From positions 1-45,641 of the forward strand of contig JBGPTG010000002.1 in NCBI GenBank assembly GCA_041490545.1: a stretch of DNA of 45,641 bases. Direction: 5' to 3'. This DNA is from Gammaproteobacteria bacterium. GTDB taxonomy: Bacteria > Pseudomonadota > Gammaproteobacteria > Burkholderiales > SG8-39. Below are positions 22,281-43,251 of the stretch, piece after piece (the first letter of the stretch is position 1; each line of letters begins with the position of its first letter). Under the pieces are notes generated by a model, which was not told the origin of the DNA, made no database searches, and saw nothing but the letters and a program-made list of their open reading frames with translations. The translations under genes and the position numbers were made by a program.

Positions 22281-22360
22281 GAGGTCACAAGCCCTCGTGA
22301 ATTTCGGAATTCCAACGTCCAAAGTGGAAGTGCGCTCGTCTGAAATTCCCGCCGTCAGCT

Positions 22361-23116: not shown

Positions 23117-23251
23117 GTCGAGCCTTTCTTCGCAAACATTTCTTCCTCATTGGTAGGAAGATCGAAAACCGCCCGGTTCCTCTGCCCCGTGGGAATGGGG
23201 GAACCTATCATTTTGCGCCGGCAAAAATTCCACGTTTTCATCGGCATCATA

Positions 23252-25870: not shown

Positions 25871-26614
25871 CTAGGCTGAGAGTTTACCCAGATCGGTCGG
25901 GCGATATTGGGTGATCGCCGCGGGATATTCTCTCTGCGCGGCCTCAAGGCTCTCCGCGGTACCAATGTCCCGATGGTAAATCCCATTGTGGAACGTATTG
26001 ATGCGTCCCATGAAATGCGGCAGGACTTCCGTGCTGAAATCGATCGTTTCTTTGCCGAGGCCGGCGAGAAAATCCATGACCGACGGGGACACTACGTATA
26101 CGGCGCCATTGGCCAAGTTCCCGGGTGGGTTCTTCACTTTTTCGTGGAATGCCATCACGACACCGCGTTCGTCGATTTCGACGATCCCGCAGGCTTCCGG
26201 CTCCGAGGTATTGAAAGTCATCATCGTTATTTCGATATCCCTCTCCCGTTGCTTGTGCCGCTGGACGAAGGCTCGTACATCGAAGGCGGATAAATTGTCC
26301 GCATGAACGAGCATCGAAGGTTCGTTCTGGAAGAAATCCCTGTTTCTCAGCAGCGTCCCGCCCGTTCCCAGCAGTCTCTGTTCATACACGGTGGTGACTT
26401 TCACCGGATATCGGCAGCTTTCGATATACGATTTGACCGCGTTCGGCAGGTGGTGAAGGTTGATCAGAATATCGACGATGCCGCCTTCGCTCAGCAGCTC
26501 GATCCAGTAATCCAGAAGCGGCCGACCGTTTATCTCGATAAGACACTTGGGGATCGAATTCGTGATGGGGCGCAGACGGATACCCAGTCCGGCGGCGAGG
26601 AGCAGCGCACGCAA
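25871..26614 (-). CDS. Sugar-phosphate nucleotidyltransferase (NTP_transferase family; HddC / LicC / MurU-like)
   Basis: MRALLLAAGLGIRLRPITNSIPKCLIEINGRPLLDYWIELL is the canonical G-x-G-x-R-L N-terminus; 247 aa. Confidence 0.8.
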   Translation of the reverse strand: MRALLLAAGLGIRLRPITNSIPKCLIEINGRPLLDYWIELLSEGGIVDILINLHHLPNAVKSYIESCRYPVKVTTVYEQRLLGTGGTLLRNRDFFQNEPSMLVHADNLSAFDVRAFVQRHKQRERDIEITMMTFNTSEPEACGIVEIDERGVVMAFHEKVKNPPGNLANGAVYVVSPSVMDFLAGLGKETIDFSTEVLPHFMGRINTFHNGIYHRDIGTAESLEAAQREYPAAITQYRPTDLGKLSA

Positions 26615-26617
26615 CGC

Positions 26618-28132
26618 TCAGCCTTTCACAGTGTTGTCGCTCTTGCTGATCTCGACGAGCAACTCTCCCGCGCTTAAAGGGATATTCCCGATCCGCCCTA
26701 CCTGGCAGGCGGCCGCAAGCGATCCGAGGTAAACACTCTCCCAAACCGGCCTCCCGACCGCCATCGCCATGGCGGCGCAGACCAGGAGGGAGTCGCCCGC
26801 GCCAGCGGTGTCCTTCGGAGCGGTGTTCAGCGCGGCGAGCCGATCCGTGAGCCATTGCCCTTTCTCGGTTACCTTGGCATGTATAAGGACGCCTTCCGTC
26901 CCGAGGGTAATGGCGATGTTTTCTGCATTTGCACGCCGCCTCAGGGTTTCCGCGATCACCACCAGCCCGTCTTCATAGTTTCCCAGCGCGATTCTGGCCT
27001 CACGCTCGGTCGGAGTGAGCAACGCGGCGCCCTTGAAGCGGGAAACGTCTCCGGTCTGGGACGAACTCTGACTGTCGGCGACCATCATGATGCCGCGTTG
27101 ACGGCACTCATTCGTGACCTCGTCCACCAGTTCCTGGGGCAGGGTCCCGTAGTTGAAATCAGAAAAAATCACCAGATCCGTGTCGGCAAGAACCTCTCTC
27201 AGATGCTCAAGAGCTCGCTGCTGTAAAGACCTGTTGATTCTATGCTGCCGCAACTGGCTTACGCGAAGTAAGGTCTTGTTTCCCGCCCGGTAGCGCTGCT
27301 TTAGAGTGGTGGGACGGCTATCATCCTTTATCAGTTGGGCGTTGACCCCATAAGCATCGAGTCTCTCGGCGACATATCGTCCGGCCTCATCATCGCCGGT
27401 CACTGAAAGGAAGTTGACGGACCCGGCACCGAGATGCCGCGCGTGTGCCGCAACGATCGCCGCTCCGCCGATAAACCTTTCTGTCATGATAGGAGTCACC
27501 ACAATCGTCGGGTCCTCCTGCGACATCCCAAGCGGATCGCACTGAATGTAGTCGTCGACGATGGTATCTCCGATTACGCACACCTTGAGCGACCGCATCT
27601 GGTCCAGTACTGACGCCAGGCTTGGAACGTTGAAACCGTGCCGTTTGATGAACTCTCTTGGCCTGATGATCGAAGCGTGATTGATGAGCTCCGATTCCTT
27701 TCGAATAAGCTCCAATGAGGAAAATATCGTGTCCCCGGAGCCGAAAAGCAGTTTCCCTCCGTAAGACTGAACGACGCCAAGTTCCGGATTGATCCCGTTC
27801 TCGTGTTCCTTCCCCTTCACAACGATCGCAGGGCGCAACTCGGCAATGAAGCTTTCCGGAGTGTCGCGCAGCAGGAACGCATGATCGACCCAACTGATCG
27901 CTGCCACGCCCTCCAGGCGCATGTCATGGGTCAGTTGGGCGTTGGCGGCCAACGGGTCGCTCAATACACCGACTACGAGGGAGTCACCGCACTCGGCGGC
28001 GAAGCGCAACAGCCGCAGGTGTCCAGGGTGAACTATGTTGAAAGTCCCTGACACAAAAACGGTGCGCTGTCCGCTCTTCGCACTGGCTCGAATCGTGTCT
28101 ATCACGGACGCTGAATCAGGGTGTAATTTCAT
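26618..28132 (-). CDS. Bifunctional cytidylyltransferase-like (N-terminal) / PfkB sugar kinase (C-terminal) protein: HldE-like domains in reversed order
   Basis: The N-terminus has TVFVSGTFNIVHPGHLRLLRFA (HxGH nucleotidyltransferase motif). Residues ~185-504 have VCVIGDTIVDDY..., the GAAIVA region and the C-terminal DTAGAGDSLL PfkB signature. Confidence 0.8.
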   Translation of the reverse strand: MKLHPDSASVIDTIRASAKSGQRTVFVSGTFNIVHPGHLRLLRFAAECGDSLVVGVLSDPLAANAQLTHDMRLEGVAAISWVDHAFLLRDTPESFIAELRPAIVVKGKEHENGINPELGVVQSYGGKLLFGSGDTIFSSLELIRKESELINHASIIRPREFIKRHGFNVPSLASVLDQMRSLKVCVIGDTIVDDYIQCDPLGMSQEDPTIVVTPIMTERFIGGAAIVAAHARHLGAGSVNFLSVTGDDEAGRYVAERLDAYGVNAQLIKDDSRPTTLKQRYRAGNKTLLRVSQLRQHRINRSLQQRALEHLREVLADTDLVIFSDFNYGTLPQELVDEVTNECRQRGIMMVADSQSSSQTGDVSRFKGAALLTPTEREARIALGNYEDGLVVIAETLRRRANAENIAITLGTEGVLIHAKVTEKGQWLTDRLAALNTAPKDTAGAGDSLLVCAAMAMAVGRPVWESVYLGSLAAACQVGRIGNIPLSAGELLVEISKSDNTVKG

Positions 28133-28165
28133 GGCGCTACAAATATCAATCAGGGTCGCATCATC

Positions 28166-29410
28166 TCAAACAATGCTGAGTTCCGGAAGAGGAATCACGA
28201 ACCTGCCCCCTTCGTCGAGAAAACGCCGGTGGCGCTTGATGATCGGCGATGCAAAATTCCATGCAAGAATGACGACGTAATCGGGTCGCCGCACGTAGAT
28301 CTCGTCCGACGGCAGCACGGGGATATGGCATCCGGGGCTGTACAACCCGTGCTTGAGTGGATTGTCGTCAAGTAGGAATTCCAGCTTTTCATTCAGTTCA
28401 AAATGCCAAATGAGGGTAGTTACCGTAGTCGACGCGCCATAGCCGGCAATTCTCTTGCCTGCGGCCCTTGCGTCGTCGACAACGCGAGCGAGCGCTGCCT
28501 TGCGAGCTTGGATCGTTTCGCCGTACTCACGATAGACCGCCAGTTCGCCAAAGCGGCGCTTGGCCTCGACCTCCAACAACTCGCCGATGATCGGCATTAC
28601 CGAACGCTGACCCTCCGGCCATCGCTGCGCAAACCCGCGGATCGACCCGCCCTTGGAATTTGTTCTCTGCACATCAAAGAGCTGCAAGCCGAGACGCTCG
28701 AAGAAGCGTTTCAGGGGGGCGATCGAATGATAGGAAACATGCTCGTGATATATGGTGTCGAAGAGGAGACGGTCGACGATATCCACGAGGTAGGACACCT
28801 CGAACACGAAAACACCGTCGTCTGCAAGAAGTGTGCGGATGCCGCGAACGATGTCCGCGAGATTGTCGGCATGCGCGAAAACGTTGTTCGCCGCAATGAT
28901 AGTCGCGGGCCCCTGTTGAGCGCGTATTCTCCGCGCCAATCCTTCGGAAAAGAATTCCGGCAGCGTCGGGATGCCTGTTGCGGTCGCTTCCTCGGCGATG
29001 CGGCGCGCCGGATCGATCCCGAGCACCTTGAGTCCCTTGTTCTGGAAGAACCGCAGCAGCGAGCCATCGTTGCTTCCGATCTCGGCGGCCAGCGAGCCGG
29101 GCCTGACAGCGAACCGCGCCGTTACTTCGTCGGCGTAGAGCCGGTAGTGTTCCACCAGTCCCGGGGAGCTTGAAGTGACGTAGATGTAGTCGCGAAACAG
29201 AGCCTCGGGATCGACTACGTCTATGTTCTGTACATGACCGCAGTCAAGACATAGGTAAAGATCCAGCGGGTAGGTATCCTGTTTTGCCCCGAGCTTTTCC
29301 TTCGAGACGTAAGCGTCCGCGATAGGCGAGGCGGTTATCGGGAGAGCTCGCTCGAGGCGTGCGCCGTCGCAGAGACGGCAACGGCGTCGACGGATTACAG
29401 ATGCCACCAC
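28166..29410 (-). CDS. NDP-hexose C-methyltransferase-type protein (Zn-ribbon + class I MT + C-terminal C-methyltransferase domain; TylC3-like)
   Basis: CRLCDG...CLDCGHVQ zinc ribbon; SAM motif I LAAEIGSNDGSLL; VLGIDPA; NNVFAHADNL; EHVSYHS; C-terminal Rossmann-like IAGYGASTTVTTL. Start set at GTG 29410, just after the upstream stop (29424). Confidence 0.8.
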   Translation of the reverse strand: MVASVIRRRRCRLCDGARLERALPITASPIADAYVSKEKLGAKQDTYPLDLYLCLDCGHVQNIDVVDPEALFRDYIYVTSSSPGLVEHYRLYADEVTARFAVRPGSLAAEIGSNDGSLLRFFQNKGLKVLGIDPARRIAEEATATGIPTLPEFFSEGLARRIRAQQGPATIIAANNVFAHADNLADIVRGIRTLLADDGVFVFEVSYLVDIVDRLLFDTIYHEHVSYHSIAPLKRFFERLGLQLFDVQRTNSKGGSIRGFAQRWPEGQRSVMPIIGELLEVEAKRRFGELAVYREYGETIQARKAALARVVDDARAAGKRIAGYGASTTVTTLIWHFELNEKLEFLLDDNPLKHGLYSPGCHIPVLPSDEIYVRRPDYVVILAWNFASPIIKRHRRFLDEGGRFVIPLPELSIV

Positions 29411-29423
29411 GGCGTATGCATGA

Positions 29424-30188
29424 CTAGAGGGATTTGAGCTTTCTCGCGAGTGTTTCCGGCCAGACAAGCGACAGGCCGCCGTCCACGTACAGATTCTGCC
29501 CGTTGATGAAGCTCGCGGCGGGGCTGCACAAGAAGGCGATAGCATTGGCGCTGTCCTCCGCGCGCCCCATTCGTCCCAGTGGAATAATCTCTCGGTAGAG
29601 CGCGTGCAACTGCTCGTTGTTGACGTAGAAATCCCTTGACTCTTCCTTGAGGAACGTAAAAGGGGTCACGGTGTTCACGCGGATACCCTTGCGTCCAAGG
29701 CTGACTGCATAGAACCGCGCCATCTGGTTCATGCCGGCTTTTCCGAGGTGATAGCTGAGCGGCTGGCCTTCACCCACACGGTCGCCGAACACCGAACTCA
29801 CAAGCACGATTCCTCTGTCACCCTCGGTGGCGAACTTCGGGGCAAGAGCCTCGATCAGCTGCTTCGTTGCGGTCAGGCTCACCTGGATTTCGCCCGCCCA
29901 GTCGTCGTCCTTGCCGCGGTAGCGCTGGCAGAATATCAGGTAGTTAAGGGGGCCGCTCCTGCCAACCGCCGATTCGGCCGCACGCAAGGCAGCGTCGCCA
30001 TCCAGCAAATCCGCGATCCAGTGCCTTACGTTCGGGACCTGTTTGTCGGTTTCCGGAGGCTCATGCCGCCCGATGACCGACACGCAAGACTCCCGCGCAG
30101 CGAGAAGGCGCATCACCTCCCGGCCCAGTCCACGCGTGCCGCCAACGATCAGCGCATGCGGCATAGCGCCCGTTCCTTCTTGTGTCAT
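29424..30188 (-). CDS. Classical SDR oxidoreductase
   Basis: ALIVGGTRGLGREV, YHLGKAGMN (YxxxK). ATG 30188 overlaps the wbuC-like stop as ATGA. Confidence 0.8.
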   Translation of the reverse strand: MTQEGTGAMPHALIVGGTRGLGREVMRLLAARESCVSVIGRHEPPETDKQVPNVRHWIADLLDGDAALRAAESAVGRSGPLNYLIFCQRYRGKDDDWAGEIQVSLTATKQLIEALAPKFATEGDRGIVLVSSVFGDRVGEGQPLSYHLGKAGMNQMARFYAVSLGRKGIRVNTVTPFTFLKEESRDFYVNNEQLHALYREIIPLGRMGRAEDSANAIAFLCSPAASFINGQNLYVDGGLSLVWPETLARKLKSL

Positions 30189-30742
30189 TTTCTTGGTTGC
30201 GCGAGGAACATGGCGGCAGTGCGTGCAATGCCGGCGATGTACGCGATTACCTCTTCGCGCCGTCCCTCGGGCGGAGCGAATGGCGCGAGGATGGTCTCCT
30301 CTCTGACAAATGGACCGTTTGTCACTTCGTGAACGACCAGAAAATCGCCGTGAATGAGAAGGGTATGAAACACGCTGTCCGAAAGCCGGTAATAGAAATT
30401 ACGTCCGGTCGAAATGTCGCCGAGCTCGATGACATCGATGACGGATCCTGCATCGTCGAACATTATCACATCCACTGCGCCCTCGACGATGTGAAAAGAC
30501 TCGATTTTGCTGAGGTGCTTGTGGGGGTGAATGTAGCTCTCCGCGGAGATCGCAATCAGCATCTCGTGCAGACTGTCGTGGTTGGACCGGTGCGCACAGA
30601 TTCGCGCGCGGCCGCGCGCGTTCCGGGCCGCTTGTTGCTTGAGGAAAGAGATTTGCCGGGCGCCCATGCGAACGATCTGCGCCTCGGCGACGAACACCTC
30701 GTCGTTGACTTTGCGAAGCTTGATTCCGGCGGCCGCGTCCAT
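30185..30742 (-). CDS. wbuC: WbuC-family cupin-fold protein (function unknown)
   Basis: 186 aa from ATG 30742: ARICAHRSNHDSLHEMLIAISAESYIHPHKHLSKIESFHIVEG...FYYRLSDSVFHTLLI, a cupin His cluster typical of the WbuC family found in 6-deoxy-HexNAc O-antigen loci. Confidence 0.65.
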   Translation of the reverse strand: MDAAAGIKLRKVNDEVFVAEAQIVRMGARQISFLKQQAARNARGRARICAHRSNHDSLHEMLIAISAESYIHPHKHLSKIESFHIVEGAVDVIMFDDAGSVIDVIELGDISTGRNFYYRLSDSVFHTLLIHGDFLVVHEVTNGPFVREETILAPFAPPEGRREEVIAYIAGIARTAAMFLAQPRK

Positions 30743-30744
30743 TG

Positions 30745-31938
30745 TCAGAGCAGGGCAAGCGGGCTGAGGGCGAAGATCGAGCGGAACTCTCCGCCCCTCT
30801 CCCTGTAGGCCTTCTTCGCCGACAACACTTTCTTCTCGCTTTCCGGACTCAAAGAAAGCAGGCAGAGGTCGACCCGTCCTTGCTCGAGCAGCGAGGAACT
30901 GCGAATCGGCAGCCGGGATCCCGGCATGACGAGCGCCTGTTTGTTGGGATTGTCGTCGATGACGCAATCGATGCAGTCGCCCAACCCGAACAGGTTGAGA
31001 AACTTTGCCGCCAGGTGCCCTGCACCGAAGACGACCACTCGTTTGCCGGCGGCGCGGAACCCAGCAAGTCGCGTGCGATGAAGTTCGCGAACCTTCGGGA
31101 ACTGCTTTGCATACCGCCGGCCGCGTGCGAGTTCGGTTGGAAGTCCTTCCAAGACGGGGTGGACGACGGGCTTACCCATTCGTACGATGGCCACCAGCGA
31201 GTCCTCGAGTGCGTAGGGATAGGTCAGAATTTCGAATACCTCACAGCCATTCGCCTCGAGTACTGCTTTCAGCGTCGTGGGCGAAAAATAGGCTATGTGC
31301 TCCTCCCAGACGAAGCTGTAGTCGCACGCGTCCAGGAATTTCCTGCTGTCCGGCACTTCGAAAATCAGATATCCGCCCGGCCCCACCAGCGGCGCGAGGC
31401 CCCGGAGGAACGCCCGCAGATCATGCGCGTGCTCGATCACATGCCGAGCCAGGAAGACGCTGGCCCGCCCTCGGCGGGCAGCGATGTCCCGCGAACGGTG
31501 TTCCCGCACTGCCTCCTGGACGGATTCCAGTCCTGAAGCCGGGTCATCCAAGCCCAAGTCTGCGGAAGGGTCCAATCGAAAATTCCGGGAAAACCCAAGT
31601 CGACCCAGGCGCGCGATGGTCGAGTCATCTTTGTAAGTCAACCCGGCGATCAGGGACTCCGGCCCGAGTCCGGGCAGATGTTTCACGCGGTCTGCGAGGA
31701 CGTCCAGATGCCCTTCCGGTTCGTTGTAGGTCACCCACGAATAGCGCGACCGAACCATACCCGCCGGCATCGGGTCGACCAGTTGCACAAGGCCACAGGT
31801 GGAGCACTGGCCGAGCGCAAGGCGGTGCACGTCGATCTCCTTTTCACCGTCCCTAAGGAAGCGGTTACTGGGTGGCTGCAGACCGAAGTCGATGAGCGTG
31901 TCTACCATCTCGCCGCAGGCTATGCAGAGTTGCATCAC
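30745..31938 (-). CDS. C-methyltransferase-like paralog with degenerate SAM-binding motif I
   Basis: CIACGE...CSTCGLVQ zinc ribbon, ARHVIEHAHDL, EEHIAYFS, and a C-terminal VVVFGAGHLAAKFL domain. These are colinear with the 28166 and 40937 proteins, but motif I reads LIAGLTYKDDS instead of (E/D)IGSNDG. Confidence 0.75.
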   Translation of the reverse strand: MMQLCIACGEMVDTLIDFGLQPPSNRFLRDGEKEIDVHRLALGQCSTCGLVQLVDPMPAGMVRSRYSWVTYNEPEGHLDVLADRVKHLPGLGPESLIAGLTYKDDSTIARLGRLGFSRNFRLDPSADLGLDDPASGLESVQEAVREHRSRDIAARRGRASVFLARHVIEHAHDLRAFLRGLAPLVGPGGYLIFEVPDSRKFLDACDYSFVWEEHIAYFSPTTLKAVLEANGCEVFEILTYPYALEDSLVAIVRMGKPVVHPVLEGLPTELARGRRYAKQFPKVRELHRTRLAGFRAAGKRVVVFGAGHLAAKFLNLFGLGDCIDCVIDDNPNKQALVMPGSRLPIRSSSLLEQGRVDLCLLSLSPESEKKVLSAKKAYRERGGEFRSIFALSPLALL

Positions 31939-31987
31939 GGGGTTCAGGGGGCCGAGAAATTTCGCAAACCAGAGCCTAGCCAGCCGC

Positions 31988-33037
31988 CTAGAAGGCGATC
32001 AGGCAGCGCCCGCTCACATCGCCCCTTCGCATCGCGACAATGGCGTCGTTTATCTGATCAAGCCCGTAGCGGTTGGTGAGTAGGTTGCGCAGCTTGATTC
32101 GTCCCGCCTTGAACAATGCGTGATAGCGGGGAATATCCTGCTCGGGGACGGCTTCGCCACCGTGAGAGCCGGAGAGGATTTTCCCAAAATGCAGCGGTAG
32201 CGAGTAGATGGAAATATCGCTGCCCTTTCTGGGCACGCCCACCAGTATCACGCGCCCCTTCGGGCCGGTGAGCTCGTAGCCCATTCGTATGGCCTCAGGC
32301 AACCCCGTGTTGTCGATAAATGCGTCCACCCCTCCCGGGCCGACGATCTCGCGGATCCGCACCGGCGTGTCCTCTCGCCTGGCGTTCAAGGTATGAGTTG
32401 CCCCCATCTCCCTCGCCAGCTCGAGCCGGTTATCATAGAGATCCACGGCGACTATCGGATACGCGGTGACCAGCGCAGCAGCCTGAACGATGTTGAGCCC
32501 GATCCCGCCAGCGCCGAAAACCACCACCGATTCCCCGACACGAAGCTTGGCGTTGTTCTGGACGACGCCGAATCCGGTTGTTACGGCGCACCCGAACAGC
32601 GCCGCCACCTCCAGGTCACTGTCGCTCGGAATCGACGTAAGACGGTTCTCTGAAACCACCGAATATTCGTTGAACGTGGTGATCCAGCCGGCATTGAGCT
32701 TGCGCTCCTTCCAGGAGTAAACGGGCGTCCGAGACTCGATGCCAAGGCCCTTTCGCCAGTGCAGAACCACCTTGTCTCCGGGCTCGACGTGCCGAACACC
32801 GGGGCCTATCGCCAGGACTGTGCCCGATCCCTCGTGACCTAACAGGTGAGGCAGGAATTTGTCCTCGCCCTTCGCACCGTCGATTTCGCCAAGCTGTGAA
32901 CCGCAGATGCCGCTATAGTGAACTTTCACCAGCACCTGGCCGACATCGAGCACCTCCGGGAGCCCGATCTCGGCGATAACGAGCGGTTTGCGCAGTTCCG
33001 CAAGAATCGCCGCTTTCGTGGAACGCGGTAGGTTCAT
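31988..33037 (-). CDS. Zinc-dependent medium-chain alcohol dehydrogenase family oxidoreductase
   Basis: From ATG 33037: GICGSQL, GHEGSGTV, GDKVV, VVVFGAGGIGLNIV. Confidence 0.8.
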   Translation of the reverse strand: MNLPRSTKAAILAELRKPLVIAEIGLPEVLDVGQVLVKVHYSGICGSQLGEIDGAKGEDKFLPHLLGHEGSGTVLAIGPGVRHVEPGDKVVLHWRKGLGIESRTPVYSWKERKLNAGWITTFNEYSVVSENRLTSIPSDSDLEVAALFGCAVTTGFGVVQNNAKLRVGESVVVFGAGGIGLNIVQAAALVTAYPIVAVDLYDNRLELAREMGATHTLNARREDTPVRIREIVGPGGVDAFIDNTGLPEAIRMGYELTGPKGRVILVGVPRKGSDISIYSLPLHFGKILSGSHGGEAVPEQDIPRYHALFKAGRIKLRNLLTNRYGLDQINDAIVAMRRGDVSGRCLIAF

Positions 33038-33044
33038 TGCGCTC

Positions 33045-33728
33045 TCATTCGAAATAGATGAATGAGTGATCGCCCGCATAGCCTGTTTGCCTGAACCACC
33101 ACTCCCATTCTTCTGGCGTGCAGAACGTTTCACAGGTCACCTGCCAATAGAGCAGGTTGGCTTTTTCCACTTCATTCCGGTAGGACTCCACGCAAATATA
33201 CTTGTGCCTCTTGCCGACGCGCTGTATTTCGCGCAACGCTTTGTCGAGGTCGTAATTGTGCAGGTTGTGAAGGGTATTGAGTGAGTACACGAGCTCAAAA
33301 TGCTTGTCTGGATACGGAAGCGATGTGGCGCTGCCCGTTCGAAGTCGATCCCTAATCTCCTCCTTGGCATTCTCTATGGCGTACTCAGACACGTCAATGC
33401 CATGGATTTCAACGCCTGGAACCACTTTGGTGAAGTCATATAGCAAAAAGCCCTTGCCGCACCCGACATCCAGTATCCTGTCGCCGGCCTTGATACCGTA
33501 GTGATCGACCATCGCCCTGGCTACCTTTTCCCAGCGGCCCTCTATGTACCGATAGCCGCCGTAGTTGATGCGGCGGTCCCCATCCCAGTAGTCGAAACCC
33601 CATTTCTTGGCGAGTTCCGCCGCTCTCGCCTTAGGGAAATCTGTGTCGTTCACCCGCGCGAGATAGTCGCGTTTGGTGCTTTTGTGGACGTGGGACATGA
33701 AATCGATGTATGCCACTCTTCGGCCCAC
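33045..33728 (-). CDS. Class I SAM-dependent methyltransferase
   Basis: RILDVGCGKGFLLYDF (motif I), IHGIDVS, FELVYSLNTLHNL. Confidence 0.8.
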   Translation of the reverse strand: MGRRVAYIDFMSHVHKSTKRDYLARVNDTDFPKARAAELAKKWGFDYWDGDRRINYGGYRYIEGRWEKVARAMVDHYGIKAGDRILDVGCGKGFLLYDFTKVVPGVEIHGIDVSEYAIENAKEEIRDRLRTGSATSLPYPDKHFELVYSLNTLHNLHNYDLDKALREIQRVGKRHKYICVESYRNEVEKANLLYWQVTCETFCTPEEWEWWFRQTGYAGDHSFIYFE

Positions 33729-33731
33729 TTT

Positions 33732-34790
33732 CTAGCTGTTGATATGCTGGAGAAGACATTGCGCCATATCGAGCTGCACGCGCTTGCGGACGTTCTCGTC
33801 GAGCGCCGGGTCCGCAATTTTGCGTCTTTCGATGAAGGCGGGCAAGAAGTCATTCATTACAATGCAGCACCATTTCATCTGAATCACGGGAAGAAGCAGG
33901 CGCGTTCGCTCTGCCAACATGTTCGAATTCGGGGAATAGGTGAGTGCGGAGGCGAGAAAGGTCTCGAAGTGATCAAACGGCAACGGTATTGCCGGCTGGG
34001 AGAAAAAATCGCCTATGGTTTTTGCCGGGTCGTCCCAGCCGGCATATTCGAAATCGATAAATACGACTTTGCCGTTTGGCGAGATGATTGCGTTGTGAAA
34101 TCCGAAGTCGGATGGGGAGACGCATCGATCCTCCTGGGAAAGCACGGAATCCGTCTGGAGATTTCTCCGCTCGAATTCGGCCGACACGCGTTCACGCAAG
34201 GCTGCCCACCGCGCGCGCAAGGTGACAACGAAGGCTACCGCTTGCTTGTCGACCTCCGAAGACGCAGGAACCGTCGAAAGCCTCGCAATGCGTCCCTCCA
34301 CGAGGGACAAATGGTCCACAACACTAAAGCAGGACTCGGAAGCGTTTTTCAAGGATACCGCGAGCGGCCGTTTCTCCAGTCTATTCAGACTGACGAAGAA
34401 TTCCCGCGCCTGCTCGATGTGTCTTGAAGACAGAGCTCCTCGCGTGAGCTTGCTGCCTTCAATAAATTCGTAAATTCCGATCCCGACACTCTCATCCTTG
34501 GCAACCGGCTCCGGAACGCAGTCGATCCCGGCTTTCCGGGCATATTCGAGAAATGAAAACTCCGCGTTCAGCCGGTCGCGGTTATCGGACGGATGTCTGA
34601 AGTAGCATTTTGCGACCAGCGCCCGCCCGCCGGCATCGACTCGAAACACTCGATTGTTGCCCCCCGCCGCATAGGGTTTGACCCGCAAACCCCCCGATGC
34701 AATGCCCGCCGCTGCAAGCAGCGCGGCGAGCTGGGTCGTCAGTCCCGCGTCGTCCATTTGCTCTGGAGATGCTGCTTGATGTGGTTCCAT
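33732..34790 (-). CDS. APH/choline-kinase-fold phosphotransferase (small-molecule or sugar kinase)
   Basis: GGNNRVFRV...LVAKCY (nucleotide-binding Lys), SPSDFGFHNAI (Brenner-type HxDxxxxN variant) and FIDFEYAGWDDP (DFE metal-binding). Start is ATG 34790 or ATG 34757; either overlaps the HAD gene. Confidence 0.75.
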   Translation of the reverse strand: MEPHQAASPEQMDDAGLTTQLAALLAAAGIASGGLRVKPYAAGGNNRVFRVDAGGRALVAKCYFRHPSDNRDRLNAEFSFLEYARKAGIDCVPEPVAKDESVGIGIYEFIEGSKLTRGALSSRHIEQAREFFVSLNRLEKRPLAVSLKNASESCFSVVDHLSLVEGRIARLSTVPASSEVDKQAVAFVVTLRARWAALRERVSAEFERRNLQTDSVLSQEDRCVSPSDFGFHNAIISPNGKVVFIDFEYAGWDDPAKTIGDFFSQPAIPLPFDHFETFLASALTYSPNSNMLAERTRLLLPVIQMKWCCIVMNDFLPAFIERRKIADPALDENVRKRVQLDMAQCLLQHINS

Positions 34791-35428
34791 GACGGGAACG
34801 CAGCCAACCGACTGTCTGTCGGATAGCTGCCGTCCGGGTCGAACAGCATCCGGGCGGTGCGGGGTGGAAACCTCGGGGCGAGCAGGATTTCCGGCAGGTC
34901 GTCGATAAAGAAGTCCAGACCGAGTTCACTGATTCTCGCGAGCTTCTCCTCCTTTGTCACCTCGAAATAAACGTCGACTTCTTTGATCAATGGCTGCGGT
35001 CGGTCGATCAGGAACCGGGTTACCCAGCTGCGCGCGGCTTCATGCAGGTCATAGGGATGGCCAATGAAGGGGTAACGCGTCTTATGGCTCACGATGGCCA
35101 GATCTAGACCCTGGATCCTGGCCCAGGAAAAAAAATCGATCGCTCCGGAGTAAGCGACCGCGTCGTCCATGCGTGCGCCATAGACGTATCCTTGCATTTC
35201 CGTCCAAACATCCTCTTTGCCAGCCTGCCGCAGGTAGTCGCGCACACTCAACTTGGTCGAGGAAAGTCCCGAAGGAATCAGGCTACGCTCTAGGGCCACC
35301 CGATGGAAAAGTGCATCGTAGCTGACGATGGTGTTGTCGAAATCTACGCCGATGCGCACGGTCGGTTCAACCGCGACCCGACTAGGCCGCGCGAAGGTGT
35401 CCGAGTCGCGCCGATACTCTTGCGGCAA
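34739..35428 (-). CDS. HAD-superfamily hydrolase (probable sugar-phosphate phosphatase)
   Basis: IGVDFDNTIV (DxDxT motif I), IVSHKT, FIDDLPE. The start is ambiguous: TTG 35428 overlaps the transketolase gene by 47 nt; GTG 35359 lies 22 nt after its stop. Confidence 0.7.
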   Translation of the reverse strand: MPQEYRRDSDTFARPSRVAVEPTVRIGVDFDNTIVSYDALFHRVALERSLIPSGLSSTKLSVRDYLRQAGKEDVWTEMQGYVYGARMDDAVAYSGAIDFFSWARIQGLDLAIVSHKTRYPFIGHPYDLHEAARSWVTRFLIDRPQPLIKEVDVYFEVTKEEKLARISELGLDFFIDDLPEILLAPRFPPRTARMLFDPDGSYPTDSRLAAFPSWNHIKQHLQSKWTTRD

Positions 35429-36317
35429 TGTTCTCGGCGGTTAGCCCGAATTTACGGCGTGCGTAATCCTGAGACCCAACCTCGTGCATGAAAACATCGT
35501 CCGTGCCGAAACTAAGCAATCGGCCGCGCAGGCCGTCCAGCGAAGCAAGCCATTCCGCTATGCTGCTGCCCAGTCCACCCAAACGACTGTGTTCCTCCAC
35601 CACTGCGACAAGCAGGTAGCGCTCAAATACTTCCTTCAGCCGATCAACGTCCAGCGGCTTGACGGTATGGAAGCTCTCCACCCGCGCTGACACACCTTTC
35701 TTGTCGAGAATCTCGCGTGCGCCTAGTACGACAGGCATTATGTTCCCGGTGCTGATTAGGCAAACGTGATCGCCTTCATGTATCGTGATCGCTTTCCCAA
35801 GGTGGAAGTCTGGCTGTCGACTGTGAATTACGGGTTCCCCTTTTTTTCCGATGCGCATGTAAACCGGGCCGTCCTGGCGAAGGGCCGCGCGCAGCCCTAG
35901 ACGCAATTCAACTTCGTCGCAGGGCGCGAGAACAGTCATCTCGGGAAGCGAGCGCAACAGCGCAAGATCTTCGAGGGAATGGTGGGTGGGGCCGAGTTCG
36001 GCGTAGGAAAGTCCTGCCCCTGTGCCTACGATGACAACAGGCGCGTTGTGATAGCAGACGTCTACGCGAATTTGCTCGAAGCAGCGTGTTGTGGTGAAGG
36101 GCGTAATCGTGTAGATGACCGGGCGGAGCCCTGAAAGCGCCATACCGGCGGCGATGCTCATCATGTTCGCTTCGGCAACACCGCAATTAAAGAATCGGCC
36201 CTCTGCCTGTTGCTTGAATTTGTCAAACAACTTGTTGCCGATGTCCCCTGAGAGCAGGACCACGCGCGAATCTTCGGCGCCGAGCCTGGTAATCTCATCG
36301 GCGAACGCGTTTCTCAT
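35382..36317 (-). CDS. Transketolase, C-terminal subunit (pyrimidine-binding + C-terminal domains)
   Basis: RNAFADEITRLGAEDSRVVLLSGDIG...FFNCGVAEANMMSIAAGMALSG...GPTHHSLEDLALLRSLPEM. Confidence 0.85.
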   Translation of the reverse strand: MRNAFADEITRLGAEDSRVVLLSGDIGNKLFDKFKQQAEGRFFNCGVAEANMMSIAAGMALSGLRPVIYTITPFTTTRCFEQIRVDVCYHNAPVVIVGTGAGLSYAELGPTHHSLEDLALLRSLPEMTVLAPCDEVELRLGLRAALRQDGPVYMRIGKKGEPVIHSRQPDFHLGKAITIHEGDHVCLISTGNIMPVVLGAREILDKKGVSARVESFHTVKPLDVDRLKEVFERYLLVAVVEEHSRLGGLGSSIAEWLASLDGLRGRLLSFGTDDVFMHEVGSQDYARRKFGLTAENIAARVSARLGHLRAA

Positions 36318-37141
36318 GCGGGAATCCCCAGCTCTCGTTTCGCCGCTTTGACGTCTTCTGCGGAGGGGATTCGGTAATGCCAGTTGTTGTCGTCTTCCAT
36401 GAATGACACGCCCTTGCCTTTCACGGTGTTTGCGACGATGGCGACCGGCTTGCCGCTACCGTCGGGGACGTGCCGCAGGTGTCTGACCACTTCGCCCATG
36501 TTGTGGCCGTCAATTTCACAGCCGCTCCAGCCGAACGCCCGCCATTTGTCGACGAGCGGGGCGGGCCCCATGACTTCTGCGCTGCGGCCAGTCGCCTGCC
36601 ATTTGTTGGAATCAATGATGACCGCGAGATTTTCAACCTTCTGGGATGCGGCAAGCATCGCCGCTTCCCAGACCGATCCCTCGTTGCACTCCCCGTCGCT
36701 TACCAGCGCAAGAACTTTGTACTTCTGTTTGCGAATACGTCCCGCAAGGGCCATGCCCAGGCCCATGGGAAAACCGTGTCCGAGCGATCCGGTGGCCGCT
36801 TCGATCCCCGGAAGATGCGACGGCGTCGGCGGATGTTCGGCGAAGACGCTCCCGTCTTGCCCGTAACTATCGAGCATCGACACCGGGTAGTACCCGCGCT
36901 CGGCGAGAACCTGAAACAACGCAGGGGCCGCGTGGCCCTTGCTGAGGATGAACCGATCGCGATTCTCATCGGCCGGGTTGTCCGGATCGATTTGCAGGAC
37001 CGCAAAGTACGCTGCAACGAGGATGTCAACGCAAGACAGGCACGAGCCCAGGTGGGGTGTCTGCGTCTTGTGCGAATTCTCGATGATCCTGGCCCGAATG
37101 CTGCGGGCTATCTGTTCCAAATCACTGACTGGCGGGTTCAT
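36314..37141 (-). CDS. Transketolase, N-terminal subunit (ThDP-binding domain)
   Basis: HLGSCLSCVDILVAAYF...DRFILSKGHAAPALF...GSLGHGFPMGLGMA...LVSDGECNEGSVWEA (GDG-x-x-x-E-G ThDP motif variant). ATGA overlap with the C-terminal subunit at 36314-36317. Confidence 0.85.
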   Translation of the reverse strand: MNPPVSDLEQIARSIRARIIENSHKTQTPHLGSCLSCVDILVAAYFAVLQIDPDNPADENRDRFILSKGHAAPALFQVLAERGYYPVSMLDSYGQDGSVFAEHPPTPSHLPGIEAATGSLGHGFPMGLGMALAGRIRKQKYKVLALVSDGECNEGSVWEAAMLAASQKVENLAVIIDSNKWQATGRSAEVMGPAPLVDKWRAFGWSGCEIDGHNMGEVVRHLRHVPDGSGKPVAIVANTVKGKGVSFMEDDNNWHYRIPSAEDVKAAKRELGIPA

Positions 37142-37168
37142 GGGTAACGGGGGCGTGACGCAGTCCGG

Positions 37169-38167
37169 TCACGGCCTGTGAACGTAGAGGAACTGCTGCT
37201 GCTTCAGGTCGCCAAGCCAGCGTTCGACCCAGGCGATCGTCTCGTCGATACCCTGCTCCAGCGAGATCCGATCCTGCCAGCCGAACTGGGTTCGCACCTT
37301 CTTGCTATCAAGCAGGTACGCGGCGTCCTTGCCGAGCCGCTCGCCCACGACTTCGACACAATCCTGGAATTTCGCCTTTATCCTCTCACATATCATTTGC
37401 ACCAGGTCGCTGACGCTGATGATGCGGCTGGTAGAAATATGGTACGCCTCGCCCGTCGTGCCGTCGCGCATGACGCGCAGGGTGGCGTCCGAAACATCCC
37501 GCATGTGGATGAACGAACGCTGGGCATGTCCGCCGCCGTGAAGCTGAAGCTTGCGCCCGAGCTTGATGAACAGGATCGTTCTCGGAATGATCCGGTAGAG
37601 TTGCTGGCCCGGGCCGAAGACGTTGGCCGATCTCGTGAACACGACCGGAAATCGGTAGGCAGCGAAAAAGGTTTTTAGGCTCATGTCTGCGGCTGCACGC
37701 GACACCGCGTAAGGCGTGCTCGGATTGAAAGGCGCGCTTTCATCGATGAAGCCGCTCGTGCTGCCGTACACCTCGGGAGTGGTGACGTGCACGTATTTCT
37801 TCAGGAAATTGCATTGGCGCAATCTATCGTGGAATCGGACAGTCGACACCACGTTCGTCATGAACCAGTGATCGGGATTCTTCCAGCTCTCGGCCACCAT
37901 GGATTGGGCGGCGAAGTTGACTACAAACGCAGGTTTTTCCTGATTGACGAGATCCATCAGCGCATCGAGATCGTGGTTCAGGTCGTATTGGTAAAAGCGG
38001 AAAGTCCCCGGCCTGGCCGACCACTTGTACGGAAGGAACGCCTCATGGGGTTCCGGCGAGCGGCTGCAGCCAATGACCGGGTACCCTCGCTCGAGGAGGT
38101 AATCGGTGAAGCTCGCGCCGGAAAAGGAGTTGCTACCTAAGACCAAGACGGTCTCCGCCCCTTCCAC
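37169..38167 (-). CDS. Extended-SDR (NAD-dependent epimerase/dehydratase family) protein with non-canonical cofactor and catalytic motifs
   Basis: RmlB-like overall (NFAAQSMVAESW, TNVVSTV, TTPEVYGS). However, the Rossmann motif is GSNSFSG, the dehydratase T-D-E triad reads T-P-E, and the Y-x-x-x-K reads YAVSR (codon CGT checked on the reverse strand at ~37700). Confidence 0.75.
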   Translation of the reverse strand: MEGAETVLVLGSNSFSGASFTDYLLERGYPVIGCSRSPEPHEAFLPYKWSARPGTFRFYQYDLNHDLDALMDLVNQEKPAFVVNFAAQSMVAESWKNPDHWFMTNVVSTVRFHDRLRQCNFLKKYVHVTTPEVYGSTSGFIDESAPFNPSTPYAVSRAAADMSLKTFFAAYRFPVVFTRSANVFGPGQQLYRIIPRTILFIKLGRKLQLHGGGHAQRSFIHMRDVSDATLRVMRDGTTGEAYHISTSRIISVSDLVQMICERIKAKFQDCVEVVGERLGKDAAYLLDSKKVRTQFGWQDRISLEQGIDETIAWVERWLGDLKQQQFLYVHRP

Positions 38168-38171
38168 GGAG

Positions 38172-38762
38172 TCAGTCCTGGTTCGGTTGGTTCTTGTACA
38201 GCCACTGCATGATCATATGACCCACTACGAGTTGCAAATCTTCCGACAGTTGCATGTCGTCCACCGGAAAGTGGATCGGCACGTCGGCCATCGTCTTCGC
38301 CTTGCCCCCGGCGTACCCGAGAATCGCGTACGTCTTCACGCCCATGGATCTGGCCTGCTCGAGCGCCCTGAGGATATTCGGAGAGTTTCCGCTGCCCGAC
38401 AGGGCAATGAGCACGTCCTCGCGCCTCGCCTGCACCGCAAGCTGCGCGGAGAATATGGCATCGTAGCCGACGTCGTTGGCGAGGCAGGTCATGACCGACG
38501 AGTTGGCTGGCAGCGCAGTGACGCGCAATCCGGAGCCATGGATTTTAGAAACGCCGTAGAGGAAATCATTGGCAAGGTGGATGGCATTTGCGGCGCTGCC
38601 GCCGTTCCCGCACAGGAACACTTGCCGCCCCGTGTGCCAGCACTCCCGCAGCTCTTCTGCGAGCCGGGCCGCTTGGGTCCAGTCGGAAGACTGGAGCACG
38701 TCGCGGAGACGGCGCGCGTAATCGACGAACGCGGCTATCGGCCGGGGCGCAGGAGCATTCAT
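38172..38762 (-). CDS. gmhA: D-sedoheptulose-7-phosphate isomerase (SIS domain), GmhA family
   Basis: VFLCGNGGSAANAIHLANDF, LANDVGYDAIFSAQL, VLIALSGSGNSPNILRAL, MQLSEDLQLVVGH. ATG 38762 overlaps the upstream stop as ATGA. Confidence 0.85.
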   Translation of the reverse strand: MNAPAPRPIAAFVDYARRLRDVLQSSDWTQAARLAEELRECWHTGRQVFLCGNGGSAANAIHLANDFLYGVSKIHGSGLRVTALPANSSVMTCLANDVGYDAIFSAQLAVQARREDVLIALSGSGNSPNILRALEQARSMGVKTYAILGYAGGKAKTMADVPIHFPVDDMQLSEDLQLVVGHMIMQWLYKNQPNQD

Positions 38763-39697
38763 TTGAGGACCTCCCGCTGCATCCATTTCAGGTTGTGAAA
38801 GCGATCTTCATCCTTCAGCTGACCGAGGCGGAACTTGTCGACGATTTCGCGAATGGCATCGTCCACGGTTTTCTTGGGCCGAAAGCCGGTTGCCAGGAGC
38901 TTATCGGAGTTGACGCGGTAGGAACGAGGGTCATTCGATTCGGTTACGGTAATTCTTGCCGGCGCATGTTCGGTGACGCGGCGCGCAATGTCCATGATGG
39001 AAATATTCTCGAACCCGGCGTTGTAGATTCCCTGATGCTGCGGATGGTCGAGCATGAACATATACACGTCCGTGATGTCGTCTATATGGATGTTGGGCCG
39101 GATCTGATTGCCTCCAAAGACGGTGATGTGTTCCTTGGTGAGCGCCTGCATCGTCAGCAGGTTTACCGAAACGTCGAGGCGCATTCGGGGCGAATATCCA
39201 CACACCGTGGCCGGGCGGATAATCTGGACCGCCATTTCCTTCGCGTAGCTCAACAACACTCGCTCGGCCACCATCTTCGTCTTGTTGTATTCGGAGATGG
39301 GTTTCAGCTCCAGATCCTCGGTGACCTGAGCTTCCTCCTTGACGCCATAGACACTTCCGGAAGACGCGTAGATGAACCTGCTCACGCTGTGCCGGACGGC
39401 TTTGTCTGCAAGTTGCATCGTGGCGAGCGCGCTCACTTCCCAGGTCAGTTTGGGATCGAGGTCTCCGCACGGATCGTTTGCAATCGAGGAGAGATGAATG
39501 ATTGCGTCGATTCCGTCGAGTCTTATCTTGTCGGAATCCCTTACGTCGATCTGTCCGACAGTCAAATTCTTGTGCGGCTTGAGATAGTTGCCAAACCACA
39601 TTGTGTCGATTGCAGTCACTTCGTGGGCAGCATTCAACAGCTTGGGGACAAGGACTGTTCCTTTGTAGCCACAAGCACCCGTTACAAGAACTCGCAT
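38759..39697 (-). CDS. Extended-SDR NDP-sugar epimerase/reductase
   Basis: MRVLVTGACGYKGTVL, ASSGSVYG, YNKTKMVAE. First gene after the 284-bp gap. Confidence 0.8.
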   Translation of the reverse strand: MRVLVTGACGYKGTVLVPKLLNAAHEVTAIDTMWFGNYLKPHKNLTVGQIDVRDSDKIRLDGIDAIIHLSSIANDPCGDLDPKLTWEVSALATMQLADKAVRHSVSRFIYASSGSVYGVKEEAQVTEDLELKPISEYNKTKMVAERVLLSYAKEMAVQIIRPATVCGYSPRMRLDVSVNLLTMQALTKEHITVFGGNQIRPNIHIDDITDVYMFMLDHPQHQGIYNAGFENISIMDIARRVTEHAPARITVTESNDPRSYRVNSDKLLATGFRPKKTVDDAIREIVDKFRLGQLKDEDRFHNLKWMQREVLK

Positions 39698-39929
39698 CCC
39701 GGTTCTGTTTCTTCGTCGTTATGTACTTGAATTGACAAGCCGCGCGTTTCGTGCGGCGCTAGAGCGTTCTGTCCCGGCAACGGAGTCGCCTTGATCCAGC
39801 AGGCATGGAGTCTCGCCACGCCCTGCGGCGAGGGCAATCGAACTCGATCACAAGGACATTATCTTAATCGAATTTTCGGCATGGAGCGAGCGCGCGCGGT
39901 CCTGCGGTTCGCTCTATGCGCGGCAGAAT

Positions 39930-39948
39930 CCGCGTGGCGATCACGCGG
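39930..39948 (-). terminator. Candidate weak intrinsic terminator/attenuator hairpin
   Basis: On the minus strand, CCGCGTG-atcgc-CACGCGG (perfect 7-bp GC-rich stem) followed by AUUCU, ~35 nt after the stop of the 39982 gene. The U-tract is poor. Confidence 0.25.
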
Positions 39949-39981
39949 GTCCCCGAGCGGCGGCAGGGCCGGGGTGCCGGT

Positions 39982-40920: not shown

Positions 40921-40936
40921 GGGGAGTTTCCGCTCT

Positions 40937-42175: not shown

Positions 42176-42194
42176 GGGTTGTCTTTCTTCTAAA

Positions 42195-43172: not shown

Positions 43173-43251
43173 ATTGGCAGCACCTTTGCGTCTGCCGGGC
43201 TTGCGCTCGACGACAAGCACGCCGCGGCGGCGACGTTGAACCTGGCGCGGC

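Follow-up and report, generated by a model that had tools for sequence, protein, structure and literature searches.

A fifteen-gene polysaccharide module with a split transketolase and its probable kinship to the bradyrhizose-linked gdh cluster

Which sugar is made by a run of polysaccharide genes in which heptose-phosphate entry enzymes stand beside a split transketolase, two kinases and several methyltransferase-like proteins? The question is raised by positions 25871-39697, minus strand, of a 45,641-nucleotide stretch of a gammaproteobacterial contig (JBGPTG010000002.1 of assembly GCA_041490545.1; GTDB lineage Burkholderiales, SG8-39), which as a whole is called the window in this report. 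A first-pass annotation of the bare sequence had proposed that this run is a pathway for an undescribed branched or methylated higher-carbon sugar. The answer that we favor, with guarded confidence, is that the module is related to the gdh operon of photosynthetic Bradyrhizobium, of which it is a larger version, and that its product is most likely an activated higher-carbon sugar like bradyrhizose. A literature search (transketolase with gmhA, O-antigen and C-methyltransferase; split transketolase) returned no characterized pathway, and no later enzymology of bradyrhizose was found.

A conserved module and its counterpart in Bradyrhizobium

The open reading frames (ORFs) at 25871-39697 form an unbroken co-directional series with junctions of -19 to +49 nt. 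When the coordinates were reread, the extent of the run, its small gaps, the ATGA overlaps at 38759-38762, 36314-36317 and 30185-30188, and the single nucleotide that separates it from a wzx-like gene all proved to be as first described. Only the gene count changed. Sixteen genes had been claimed; we count 15 by using start codons that agree with those of orthologues, and both the independent JGI gene calls on the same contig and the itemized list of the first-pass annotation itself come to 15. The wzx-like gene in turn overlaps its next gene by 4 nt. The transcription unit likely begins in the 284-nt non-coding gap that precedes the first gene, a role that we only infer; no consensus promoter was found when one was looked for in this gap. 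Within the module, neither sigma-70-like promoter matches (6, vs 7.1 expected from shuffles) nor terminator-like matches (12 vs 16.2) are in excess. These counts neither prove nor oppose a single transcript, and internal promoters or terminators were rejected as a sign of separate units, because their frequency is not above that in shuffles.

The 16 window proteins were compared with the best 80 loci; locus counts per gene are lower bounds, because many contigs are short. Nine genes constitute a core: a Cj1427-like short-chain dehydrogenase/reductase (SDR) of 312 residues (SDR312), a GmhA-like SIS isomerase, an RmlB-like SDR of 332 residues (SDR332), the N- and C-terminal transketolase halves (TK-N and TK-C), a HAD-superfamily protein, an APH-fold kinase, a class I methyltransferase and a Zn-dependent alcohol dehydrogenase (Zn-ADH). 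All nine occur together in 29 of the 80 loci. Strict colinearity of the core, with identities of 63-82%, is seen in Beta-, Gamma- and Alphaproteobacteria, for example in Herbaspirillum huttiense, H. rhizosphaerae, Polaromonas, Sideroxydans and metagenome-assembled genomes (MAGs) of Coxiellaceae. Such an arrangement is far beyond chance, and the recurrence of the same gene order in unrelated genomes upholds the earlier view of a single conserved nucleotide-sugar module as opposed to a random juxtaposition. That view has to be qualified in one respect: the module is also a mosaic, with sub-modules that occur apart too.

The connection to Bradyrhizobium runs through SDR332. In Bradyrhizobium ORS285, the gene gdh (BRAO285v1_100023), annotated as a dTDP-glucose 4,6-dehydratase, belongs to a cluster of 11 genes whose synteny extends over six photosynthetic strains; mutants in gdh lack the O-antigen, a polymer built solely from bradyrhizose, a bicyclic C10 sugar (Busset et al. 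2016, PMC4743980). According to that study, it was unknown which genes direct bradyrhizose synthesis. The primers designed there for an internal part of gdh encode the peptides DAFLPYKW and DMSLRTYF, and internal fragments are described as 300-400 bp (PMC4743980). SDR332 has EAFLPYKW and DMSLKTFF, 381 bp apart, with identity at 19/23 and 18/24 primer bases. In a six-frame translation of 1.59 Mb of loci, both primer-peptide motifs occur only in SDR332 orthologues, true rmlB genes also being present. The exact primer sequences had no match in 94 loci or in the metagenome contigs searched, and searches for homologues of the module proteins gave no named ORS or BTAi1 protein among the matches listed.

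A second photosynthetic strain, ORS278, allows gene order to be compared. Its island BRADO5154-5204 holds genes specific to Nod-independent photosynthetic bradyrhizobia, and the counterpart of the module lies within a predicted horizontally acquired island (Mornico et al. 2011, PMC3899966, Table 3). Published labels in this list are a bifunctional sugar kinase/cytidylyltransferase (BRADO5164), a sugar-phosphate nucleotidyltransferase (BRADO5165), a phosphoheptose isomerase (BRADO5167), a dTDP-glucose 4,6-dehydratase (BRADO5168) and an aminoglycoside phosphotransferase family protein (BRADO5173), with a separate gmhA at BRADO5204. The first five fit the order cytidylyltransferase-kinase fusion, NTP-transferase, (SDR), SIS, RmlB-like SDR, (TK-N, TK-C, HAD), kinase that is found in loci L038, L058, L068, L072 and L080, where parentheses mark genes that have no published label. 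The order of the L058 type together with the methyltransferase and the alcohol dehydrogenase gives eleven genes. Moreover, the labels of gdh and rfaL differ by 32 in ORS285 (100023 and 100055) as well as in ORS278 (5168 and 5200).

The window and the Bradyrhizobium cluster share an SDR that bears the gdh primer peptides and published products in the same relative order from the SIS isomerase to the APH kinase. Both lie in lipopolysaccharide islands of atypical composition. In the window, the G+C fraction is 0.53-0.62 across the polysaccharide genes at 23-40 kb vs 0.64-0.69 at its left end (1-8000), a drop consistent with horizontal acquisition. The closest named protein relatives of the module belong to Bradyrhizobium sp. 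MAGs, which have 71-93% amino acid identity and an identical 15-gene order followed by wzx. The two systems differ as follows: the window has four additional genes, namely an SDR, a WbuC cupin and a pair of TylC3-type homologues; its fusion and NTP-transferase genes lie at the 3' end of the module vs the 5' end in Bradyrhizobium; and its module continues into Wzx, surrounded by the rml, fnl and manC genes of a heteropolymer locus. The Bradyrhizobium cluster itself is known from genetics only, that is, from one possibly polar mutant and synteny.

No characterized nucleotide-sugar pathway with this combination of genes had been known to the first-pass annotation. The gdh cluster is a precedent for 11 of the 15. 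The module is therefore only by half an already known locus with a known sugar, because the product of the related locus is known while its enzymes are uncharacterized and four genes are extra here.

The transketolase, the other enzymes and a proposed route

For both transketolase halves, the closest match is the active split enzyme of Carboxydothermus hydrogenoformans (6YAK for TK-N and 6YAJ for TK-C; Table 1). They retain the PHLG, SKGHA, EHP and WH motifs and the donor-site His residues, with GDG changed to SDG. The cofactor-activating Glu366 is kept in 69/69 orthologues, all of which also have His at the position of yeast His481 (Gln428 in the human enzyme). The acceptor side is rebuilt. 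Four residues, Arg318, Ser345, His416 and Arg474 in human-transketolase numbering, are those that we take to bind phosphate, and only Arg318 is retained: in the 69 cassette orthologues His416 is always Gly and Arg474 always Lys, and Ser345 is Lys or Arg in 64. Asp424, which presumably reads the 2-hydroxyl of the acceptor, is replaced in all 69, by Leu (61) or Asn (8). Hence, of the features that define canonical transketolase (EC 2.2.1.1), the site for thiamine diphosphate (ThDP) and Mg, the Glu and the donor His are present, and the residues for phosphate and the 2-hydroxyl are not. Judged by these residues, the enzyme constitutes a distinct subfamily with a rebuilt acceptor pocket, and its activity is probably still ketol transfer, with a non-canonical anionic acceptor. 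From the donor-site His residues, a ketol (glycolaldehyde) donor is predicted, not a 2-oxo acid. The pocket is still cationic (Arg, Lys/Arg, Lys), which fits a phosphate or a diphosphate alike and does not discriminate between the readings weighed below. It is very unlikely that this is a housekeeping transketolase.

Table 1. Module genes and adjoining features in the window, in order of decreasing coordinate. The "Loci" column gives the number of loci, among the best 80, with the gene.
Feature	Position	Strand	Matches	Loci	Remarks
TylC3-type C-methyltransferase, 412 aa	40937-42175	-			Third of its type; in upstream deoxysugar set
Non-coding gap, 284 nt	39698-39981	.			Precedes first gene; sequence read
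Extended SDR (SDR312), 312 aa	38759-39697	-	Pfam Epimerase, 125.7 bits	55	Core gene 1; Cj1427-like
GmhA-like SIS isomerase, 196 aa	38172-38762	-	SIS_2, 86 bits	34	Core gene 2; corresponds to BRADO5167
RmlB-like SDR (SDR332), 332 aa	37169-38167	-	TIGR01181, 193.5 bits (cut-off 365); PDB 6BI4, 156 bits	62	Homologue of Bradyrhizobium gdh (BRAO285v1_100023/BRADO5168)
Transketolase-like N-terminal half (TK-N), 275 aa	36314-37141	-	Transketolase_N, 122.8 bits; 6YAK, 229 bits	66 (pair)	
Transketolase-like C-terminal half (TK-C), 311 aa	35382-36317	-	Transket_pyr, Transketolase_C; 6YAJ, 187 bits	66 (pair)	
HAD-superfamily phosphatase-like protein, ~206 aa	34739-35359	-		75	Directly upstream of kinase, which it adjoins in these 75 loci; ORF could reach 35428
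APH/choline-kinase-fold small-molecule kinase, 341 aa	33732-34757	-	Pfam APH, 46.9 bits		Marker gene of cassette; corresponds to BRADO5173
Class I S-adenosylmethionine (SAM) methyltransferase, 217 aa	33045-33698	-	Methyltransf_31/11/25	68	
Zn-ADH, 349 aa	31988-33037	-	ADH_N, ADH_zinc_N	57	Core gene 9
TylC3-architecture protein, SAM motif I replaced, 397 aa	30745-31938	-	Methyltransf_13/23/14		Add-on gene
WbuC-family cupin (DUF6016), 185 aa	30185-30742	-	TIGR04366, 129.2 bits (cut-off 42); PF19480 in gene calls		Add-on gene
Classical SDR, 246 aa	29424-30164	-	adh_short_C2, 112.9 bits		Add-on gene; alternative start 30188 yields ATGA overlap
TylC3-type sugar C-methyltransferase, 414 aa	28166-29410	-	Methyltransf_14, 155.8 bits; Methyltransf_13, 64.6 bits		Add-on gene
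Cytidylyltransferase-like/PfkB kinase fusion, 504 aa	26618-28132	-	PfkB, 95.5 bits; CTP_transf_like, 47.1 bits		Corresponds to BRADO5164
Sugar-1-phosphate nucleotidyltransferase (NTP-transferase), 247 aa	25871-26614	-	NTP_transferase, 115.9 bits		Corresponds to BRADO5165
Wzx-like flippase	24457-25869	-	NF041503 WZX_like, 39.4 bits (well under cut-off)		Context gene

Profile annotation with Pfam and NCBIfam bore out the domain and motif assignments that had been read from the letters, with a partial reservation for the HAD protein. The window protein itself has no Pfam match; its DFDNT motif is present in 77/77 orthologues, and 22 of 24 orthologues match Pfam HAD. The residues of HAD motifs I-IV (D6, D8, T10, S91, K139 and D153/D154) are invariant in 24 orthologues, as in phosphatases of this superfamily. 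A single-sequence structure model of the HAD protein was unusable (pLDDT 36.6). The model of the APH-fold kinase has a pLDDT of 90.6, and its closest folds are choline and ethanolamine kinases, LicA, APH(9) and MTR kinase (TM score about 0.55), so that the predicted structure points to generic small-molecule kinases only. Searches of PDB sequences with the kinase and HAD proteins gave no detectable relatives.

Among the heptose-like enzymes, SDR312 conserves YxxxK and TGxxGxxG motifs among orthologues, and its closest solved structure is 6VO6 (129 bits vs 75 bits for the next match), which we take to be the GDP-heptose C4-dehydrogenase Cj1427 of Campylobacter jejuni. Cj1427 oxidizes GDP-D-glycero-D-manno-heptose at C4 (PMC10680097, PMC9978623). 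The SIS protein scores 122.7 bits with TIGR00441 (gmhA), under the cut-off of 209, and keeps the H..ND and Q..GH motifs in 36 orthologues. The His, Gln and His that presumably serve catalysis or metal binding in GmhA are kept, and Glu65 is Asp. The fusion protein likewise falls under the HldE cut-offs (rfaE_dom_I, 191 bits vs 345; rfaE_dom_II, 64.5 vs 181.5), and its domain order is reversed. SDR332 has [ST][ST]PE instead of the TDE of RmlB in 66 of 67 orthologues, with YxxxR in 37 and YxxxK in 28. Because the catalytic Asp of the Asp-Glu pair is missing, dehydration is doubtful, and SDR332 seems unlikely to be a 4,6-dehydratase. The "dehydrated" product that had been suggested is doubtful for this reason, and nothing specific speaks for O-methylation or for a phosphorylated end product.

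The class I methyltransferase is the best-conserved core protein, with 73-84% identity across Proteobacteria. Of the two TylC3-type homologues in the module, the 414-residue protein has the Zn-ribbon, methyltransferase and C-terminal domains of TylC3/NovU-type C-methyltransferases and an intact GSNDG ([DE][ILV]GSNDG[ST]L kept in 25 orthologues), and it belongs to that family. The 397-residue protein shares the architecture, but its motif I is non-canonical: G[LV][TS]YKDD[ST]T takes its place in 20 orthologues from different phyla. The degenerate motif that had been noticed here is therefore real and is itself conserved. Because the variant is conserved across phyla, it implies a retained but changed function rather than decay.

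These parts can be arranged into a route to bradyrhizose. In this C10 bicyclic sugar, OH-4, OH-5 or OH-9 can close on C1 (PMC9912281); therefore C9 is bonded to a quaternary C4, which gives a C4-C9 carbocycle and one exocyclic carbon. In the 11-gene set, as reconstructed above, a GmhA-type entry enzyme, a transketolase and a methyltransferase each occur exactly once. In the proposed route, the GmhA-like enzyme would isomerize sedoheptulose 7-phosphate, and the resulting heptose would be processed by the fusion kinase/cytidylyltransferase, the NTP-transferase and the HAD and APH-kinase pair, which could supply the kinase, phosphatase and nucleotidyltransferase functions. The transketolase-like enzyme would move a C2 ketol unit to a non-canonical acceptor (manno-heptose 7-phosphate, a heptose aldehyde or a 4-keto sugar), and the class I methyltransferase would contribute one carbon, so that 7 + 2 + 1 = 10. 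The Cj1427-like SDR would form the C4 ketone, and closure of the C4-C9 carbocycle would fall to the Asp-less RmlB-like SDR and the Zn-ADH, by redox and aldol steps. By analogy with inositol-phosphate synthase and UDP-apiose synthase, the Asp-less SDR is a reasonable candidate for an enzyme of NAD-dependent oxidation and aldol chemistry.

Three orders of events can be envisaged. The ketol branch may be placed on the C4 ketone first, and a C7 aldehyde may then be the target of an aldol reaction. Alternatively, extension may occur at the C7 aldehyde, after which the new terminal carbon would attack the C4 ketone. In a third option, manno-heptose 7-phosphate would be extended as a sugar phosphate and then be dephosphorylated, oxidized and cyclized, after which the APH kinase would phosphorylate the anomeric position before nucleotide activation. 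In the transketolase, the replacement of Asp by Leu and the relocation of the phosphate site would then be accounted for by the 2S-hydroxyl and greater length of manno-heptose 7-phosphate. The four add-on genes of the window would provide further tailoring, most simply extra C-methylation and epimerization, before the adjacent Wzx flips the sugar.

A related logic operates in lincosamide octose biosynthesis, which uses the transaldolase LmbR, the GmhA-like isomerase LmbN, the kinase LmbP, the phosphatase LmbK and the nucleotidyltransferase LmbO. In both cases a C-C transferase extends a sugar phosphate, and a heptose-like isomerase, kinase, phosphatase and nucleotidyltransferase follow. In contrast to the window, the octose pathway transfers C3 by a transaldolase instead of C2 by a transketolase, includes neither a carbocycle nor C-methyltransferases, and belongs to actinomycete secondary metabolism. 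Altogether, the heptose-entry logic of the first-pass annotation is present, and a higher-carbon, C-methylated sugar remains the best reading.

Weighing the alternatives

Several points weigh against a bradyrhizose-type product. The authors who described the gdh phenotype conceded that it is possibly polar (PMC4743980). The content of BRADO5166 and BRADO5169-5172, and thus the full 11-gene match, was inferred from gene order and not read, and the position of C10 and the C-methyl group in bradyrhizose were likewise deduced. All equivalog hidden Markov model scores of the heptose- and RmlB-type genes are under the curated cut-offs. The window polysaccharide is clearly a heteropolymer flipped via Wzx; the product may therefore differ from bradyrhizose. 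The two kinases and two or three nucleotidyltransferase functions exceed the needs of one sugar. Finally, sub-modules occur separately and in differing orders: Gemmataceae loci have the HAD, APH, SDR332 and ADH genes with the C-methyltransferase set and no transketolase nearby, many loci have no fusion and NTP-transferase genes within 10 kb, and Solidesulfovibrio carbinolicus plasmid pDCAR1 (NZ_CP026539.1, 85.6-114.5 kb) carries a distant variant whose kinase is 36% identical.

These last observations are also what supports an unlikely alternative, which nonetheless survives better than the others. The module would be a mosaic of separate pathways in one operon: a heptose or hexose nucleotide arm (SIS, fusion, NTP-transferase and SDRs), a TylC3-type 3-C-methyl deoxysugar arm (two C-methyltransferase homologues, cupin and SDR), and an arm for a small, CDP-activated, phosphorylated or methylated ketol or alditol substituent (transketolase, HAD, APH kinase, methyltransferase and Zn-ADH). 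Two kinases and two types of nucleotidyltransferase, kinase folds closest to choline/ethanolamine kinases and LicA, Gemmataceae loci without the transketolase, and the pDCAR1 plasmid, in which HAD-like and APH genes, a split transketolase and methyltransferases stand amid pseB, pseC and pseF, are all in its favor. It is harder to reconcile with a nine-gene core that stays strictly colinear at 63-82% identity across classes, with core SDRs of nucleotide-sugar types, and with photosynthetic Bradyrhizobium, in which the inferred 11-gene set goes with a single-sugar O-antigen free of phosphate or alditol substituents.

A reading that we consider improbable retains one sugar and omits the ring closure. 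YerE and ErwE are acetolactate-synthase-like ThDP branching enzymes, and AviB1/B2 are two-component E1-like pairs; by acting as these do, the transketolase would attach a glycoloyl branch to an NDP-4-keto sugar, and reduction, methylation or phosphorylation would then lead to a sugar of the yersiniose or pillarose type. ThDP enzymes do add C2 and longer branches to CDP-4-keto sugars (PMC9306805). As in those systems, the window ThDP enzyme lies within a nucleotide-sugar cluster beside 4-keto-forming SDRs and ketoreductases, a homologue of a C4-oxidizing SDR precedes the transketolase, and the enzyme would be a route to sugars of more than seven carbons. Relatives of the host also make C-4-branched O-antigen sugars, for example Rhodopseudomonas palustris CGA009. 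The R. palustris sugar was considered as the product and rejected, because its chemistry better fits a YerE-type 2-oxo-acid route. The window enzyme, however, is a split transketolase closest to 6YAK, outside both the acetolactate-synthase-like family of YerE and the E1 type: the TPP_enzyme_N/M/C architecture of YerE is absent, transketolase-family domains only are found, and TPP_enzyme_C is marginal (19.8 bits). The gdh link, too, favors a carbocyclic product.

Least probable of the three is an ordinary modified heptose, (6-deoxy)heptose that is epimerized, C- or O-methylated and perhaps phosphorylated as in Campylobacter and Burkholderia capsules, with a transketolase that only boosts sedoheptulose 7-phosphate. 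The window does share GmhA-like, HldE-like and HddC-like matches, a HAD phosphatase and a Cj1427-like first SDR with the known NDP-heptose pathways (GmhA/HldE/GmhB, and GmhA/HddA/GmhB/HddC with Cj1427-type enzymes in C. jejuni; PMC10680097), and the transketolase resembles an active split enzyme with its donor His and ThDP residues kept. In contrast to those pathways, the window scores are under equivalog cut-offs, the fusion is reversed, the phosphatase is not GmhB-type, and an APH-fold kinase, a dedicated transketolase and methyltransferases are added. What speaks against it is that three of four phosphate-binding residues and the 2-hydroxyl-reading Asp are replaced in the transketolase orthologues, which is unexpected for an enzyme of ribose 5-phosphate and xylulose 5-phosphate, that the RmlB-like SDR has no Asp for 4,6-dehydration, and that the cluster tracks with bradyrhizose in photosynthetic strains that have a separate gmhA (BRADO5204).

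Distribution, surrounding locus and significance

The APH-fold kinase that marks the cassette has more than 4700 homologues, and a pattern scan of one genome per species found relatives in at least 586 species-level genomes. Rearranged cores at 40-65% identity occur in Cyanobacteria (Microcoleus), Planctomycetes, Acidobacteria, Verrucomicrobia, Lentisphaerae and Dehalococcoidia, as well as in the methanogens Methanoregula, Methanosarcinales and Methanocalculus. The remaining six genes of the module are facultative, and they travel in pairs. The cytidylyltransferase-PfkB fusion and NTP-transferase genes are always adjacent wherever both occur (14 loci), the motif-I-variant homologue is always paired with the WbuC cupin (18 of the 80 loci), and the intact C-methyltransferase is paired with the short SDR (14 loci). 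The complete 15-gene set is found in Polaromonas (L034), in the Bradyrhizobium MAGs and on three metagenome contigs.

Individual loci show further variation. In Microcoleus sp. (L017, 2834-18622), the same fusion is followed by a GmhB-type HAD gene in addition to the HAD of the cassette; no SIS gene lies within 10 kb, two proteins without Pfam matches (268 and 156 aa) stand between TK-C and HAD, and large TPR-sulfotransferase proteins lie downstream. A Coxiellaceae MAG (L058, 11699-12703) has a MIOX-family (myo-inositol-oxygenase) gene (231.6 bits) in the usual Zn-ADH slot. This gene is suggestive of an inositol-like ring in the pathway, and it was rejected as a general pathway member because L058 is the sole locus found to have it. 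On the S. carbinolicus plasmid (L094), hypothetical HAD-like and APH proteins, a full split-transketolase pair with an extra C-terminal half, several methyltransferases, radical SAM proteins and a PfkB kinase sit amid pseB/pseC/pseF/neuB-like genes for pseudaminic acid. In view of this gene context, part of the cassette may be used for modification of nonulosonic acids too. A near relative of the window on a 1.24-Mb contig (L093, 16548-18605) encodes a 685-residue, B12-binding radical SAM protein immediately beyond the downstream SDR genes that both loci share; this protein is not in the window and may be a further methylation function. In two loci that have the nine-gene core only (L005:12934-18000 and L006:12806-19625), two proteins without Pfam matches are followed by Wzm and Wzt, the latter with a C-terminal carbohydrate-binding domain. 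Such genes denote O-antigen export by an ABC transporter, which is the route that one expects for homopolymers, the bradyrhizose polymer among them. A Wzx-like neighbor like that of the window is also present in L003, L004 and L093.

The window comes from a metagenome contig (JGI 3300053057, present also in a Logan assembly), and its module is embedded in a large polysaccharide locus. Upstream (39982-45641, minus strand) lie rmlA, rmlC and rmlD-like genes, an SDR (341 aa), another SDR (312 aa) and the third TylC3-type C-methyltransferase, a set that looks like a pathway for a dTDP-6-deoxy-3-C-methyl-hexose; 3-C-methyl-rhamnose-type sugars occur in related rhizobia. Downstream of wzx (16107-24460) are a 402-aa membrane protein without a Pfam match, which is possibly Wzy, a TylF-type O-methyltransferase, two plus-strand SDRs and a GT2 glycosyltransferase. 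Further downstream are FnlA/FnlC-like genes (Polysacc_synt_2 and UDP-GlcNAc 2-epimerase), which suggest L-FucNAc synthesis, a GT1 glycosyltransferase, manC, a WbpL-type initiating transferase and a WbpM-like protein. Whereas cupins of the WbuC family are usual companions of fnl genes, the WbuC gene of the window lies within the module, paired with the motif-I-variant homologue.

What was already known is that the gdh cluster is implicated genetically in bradyrhizose; new are the enlarged 15-gene version, the transketolase subfamily and the wide spread of the cassette. For the bradyrhizose pathway, the analysis yields a gene-by-gene parts list and a testable 7 + 2 + 1 carbon bookkeeping. Plants reportedly show no immune response to the bradyrhizose polymer, and chemical synthesis of the sugar took 26 steps; an enzymatic route therefore has practical value. 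We tentatively suggest, as a broader and more doubtful proposal than the one favored above, that bradyrhizose belongs to a widespread class of C9-C12 sugars that are fused to a carbocycle or extended in chain length, made via an unrecognized heptose-extending transketolase subfamily and an Asp-less RmlB-like SDR that acts as an NAD-dependent aldol cyclase, and that the window would make a further C-methylated derivative not yet described chemically. The transketolase subfamily would be a new C-C bond-forming step in nucleotide-sugar or sugar-phosphate biosynthesis. Because the cassette is common in environmental bacteria and present in some archaea, their surface glycans probably hold higher-carbon sugars that standard composition analyses have overlooked.

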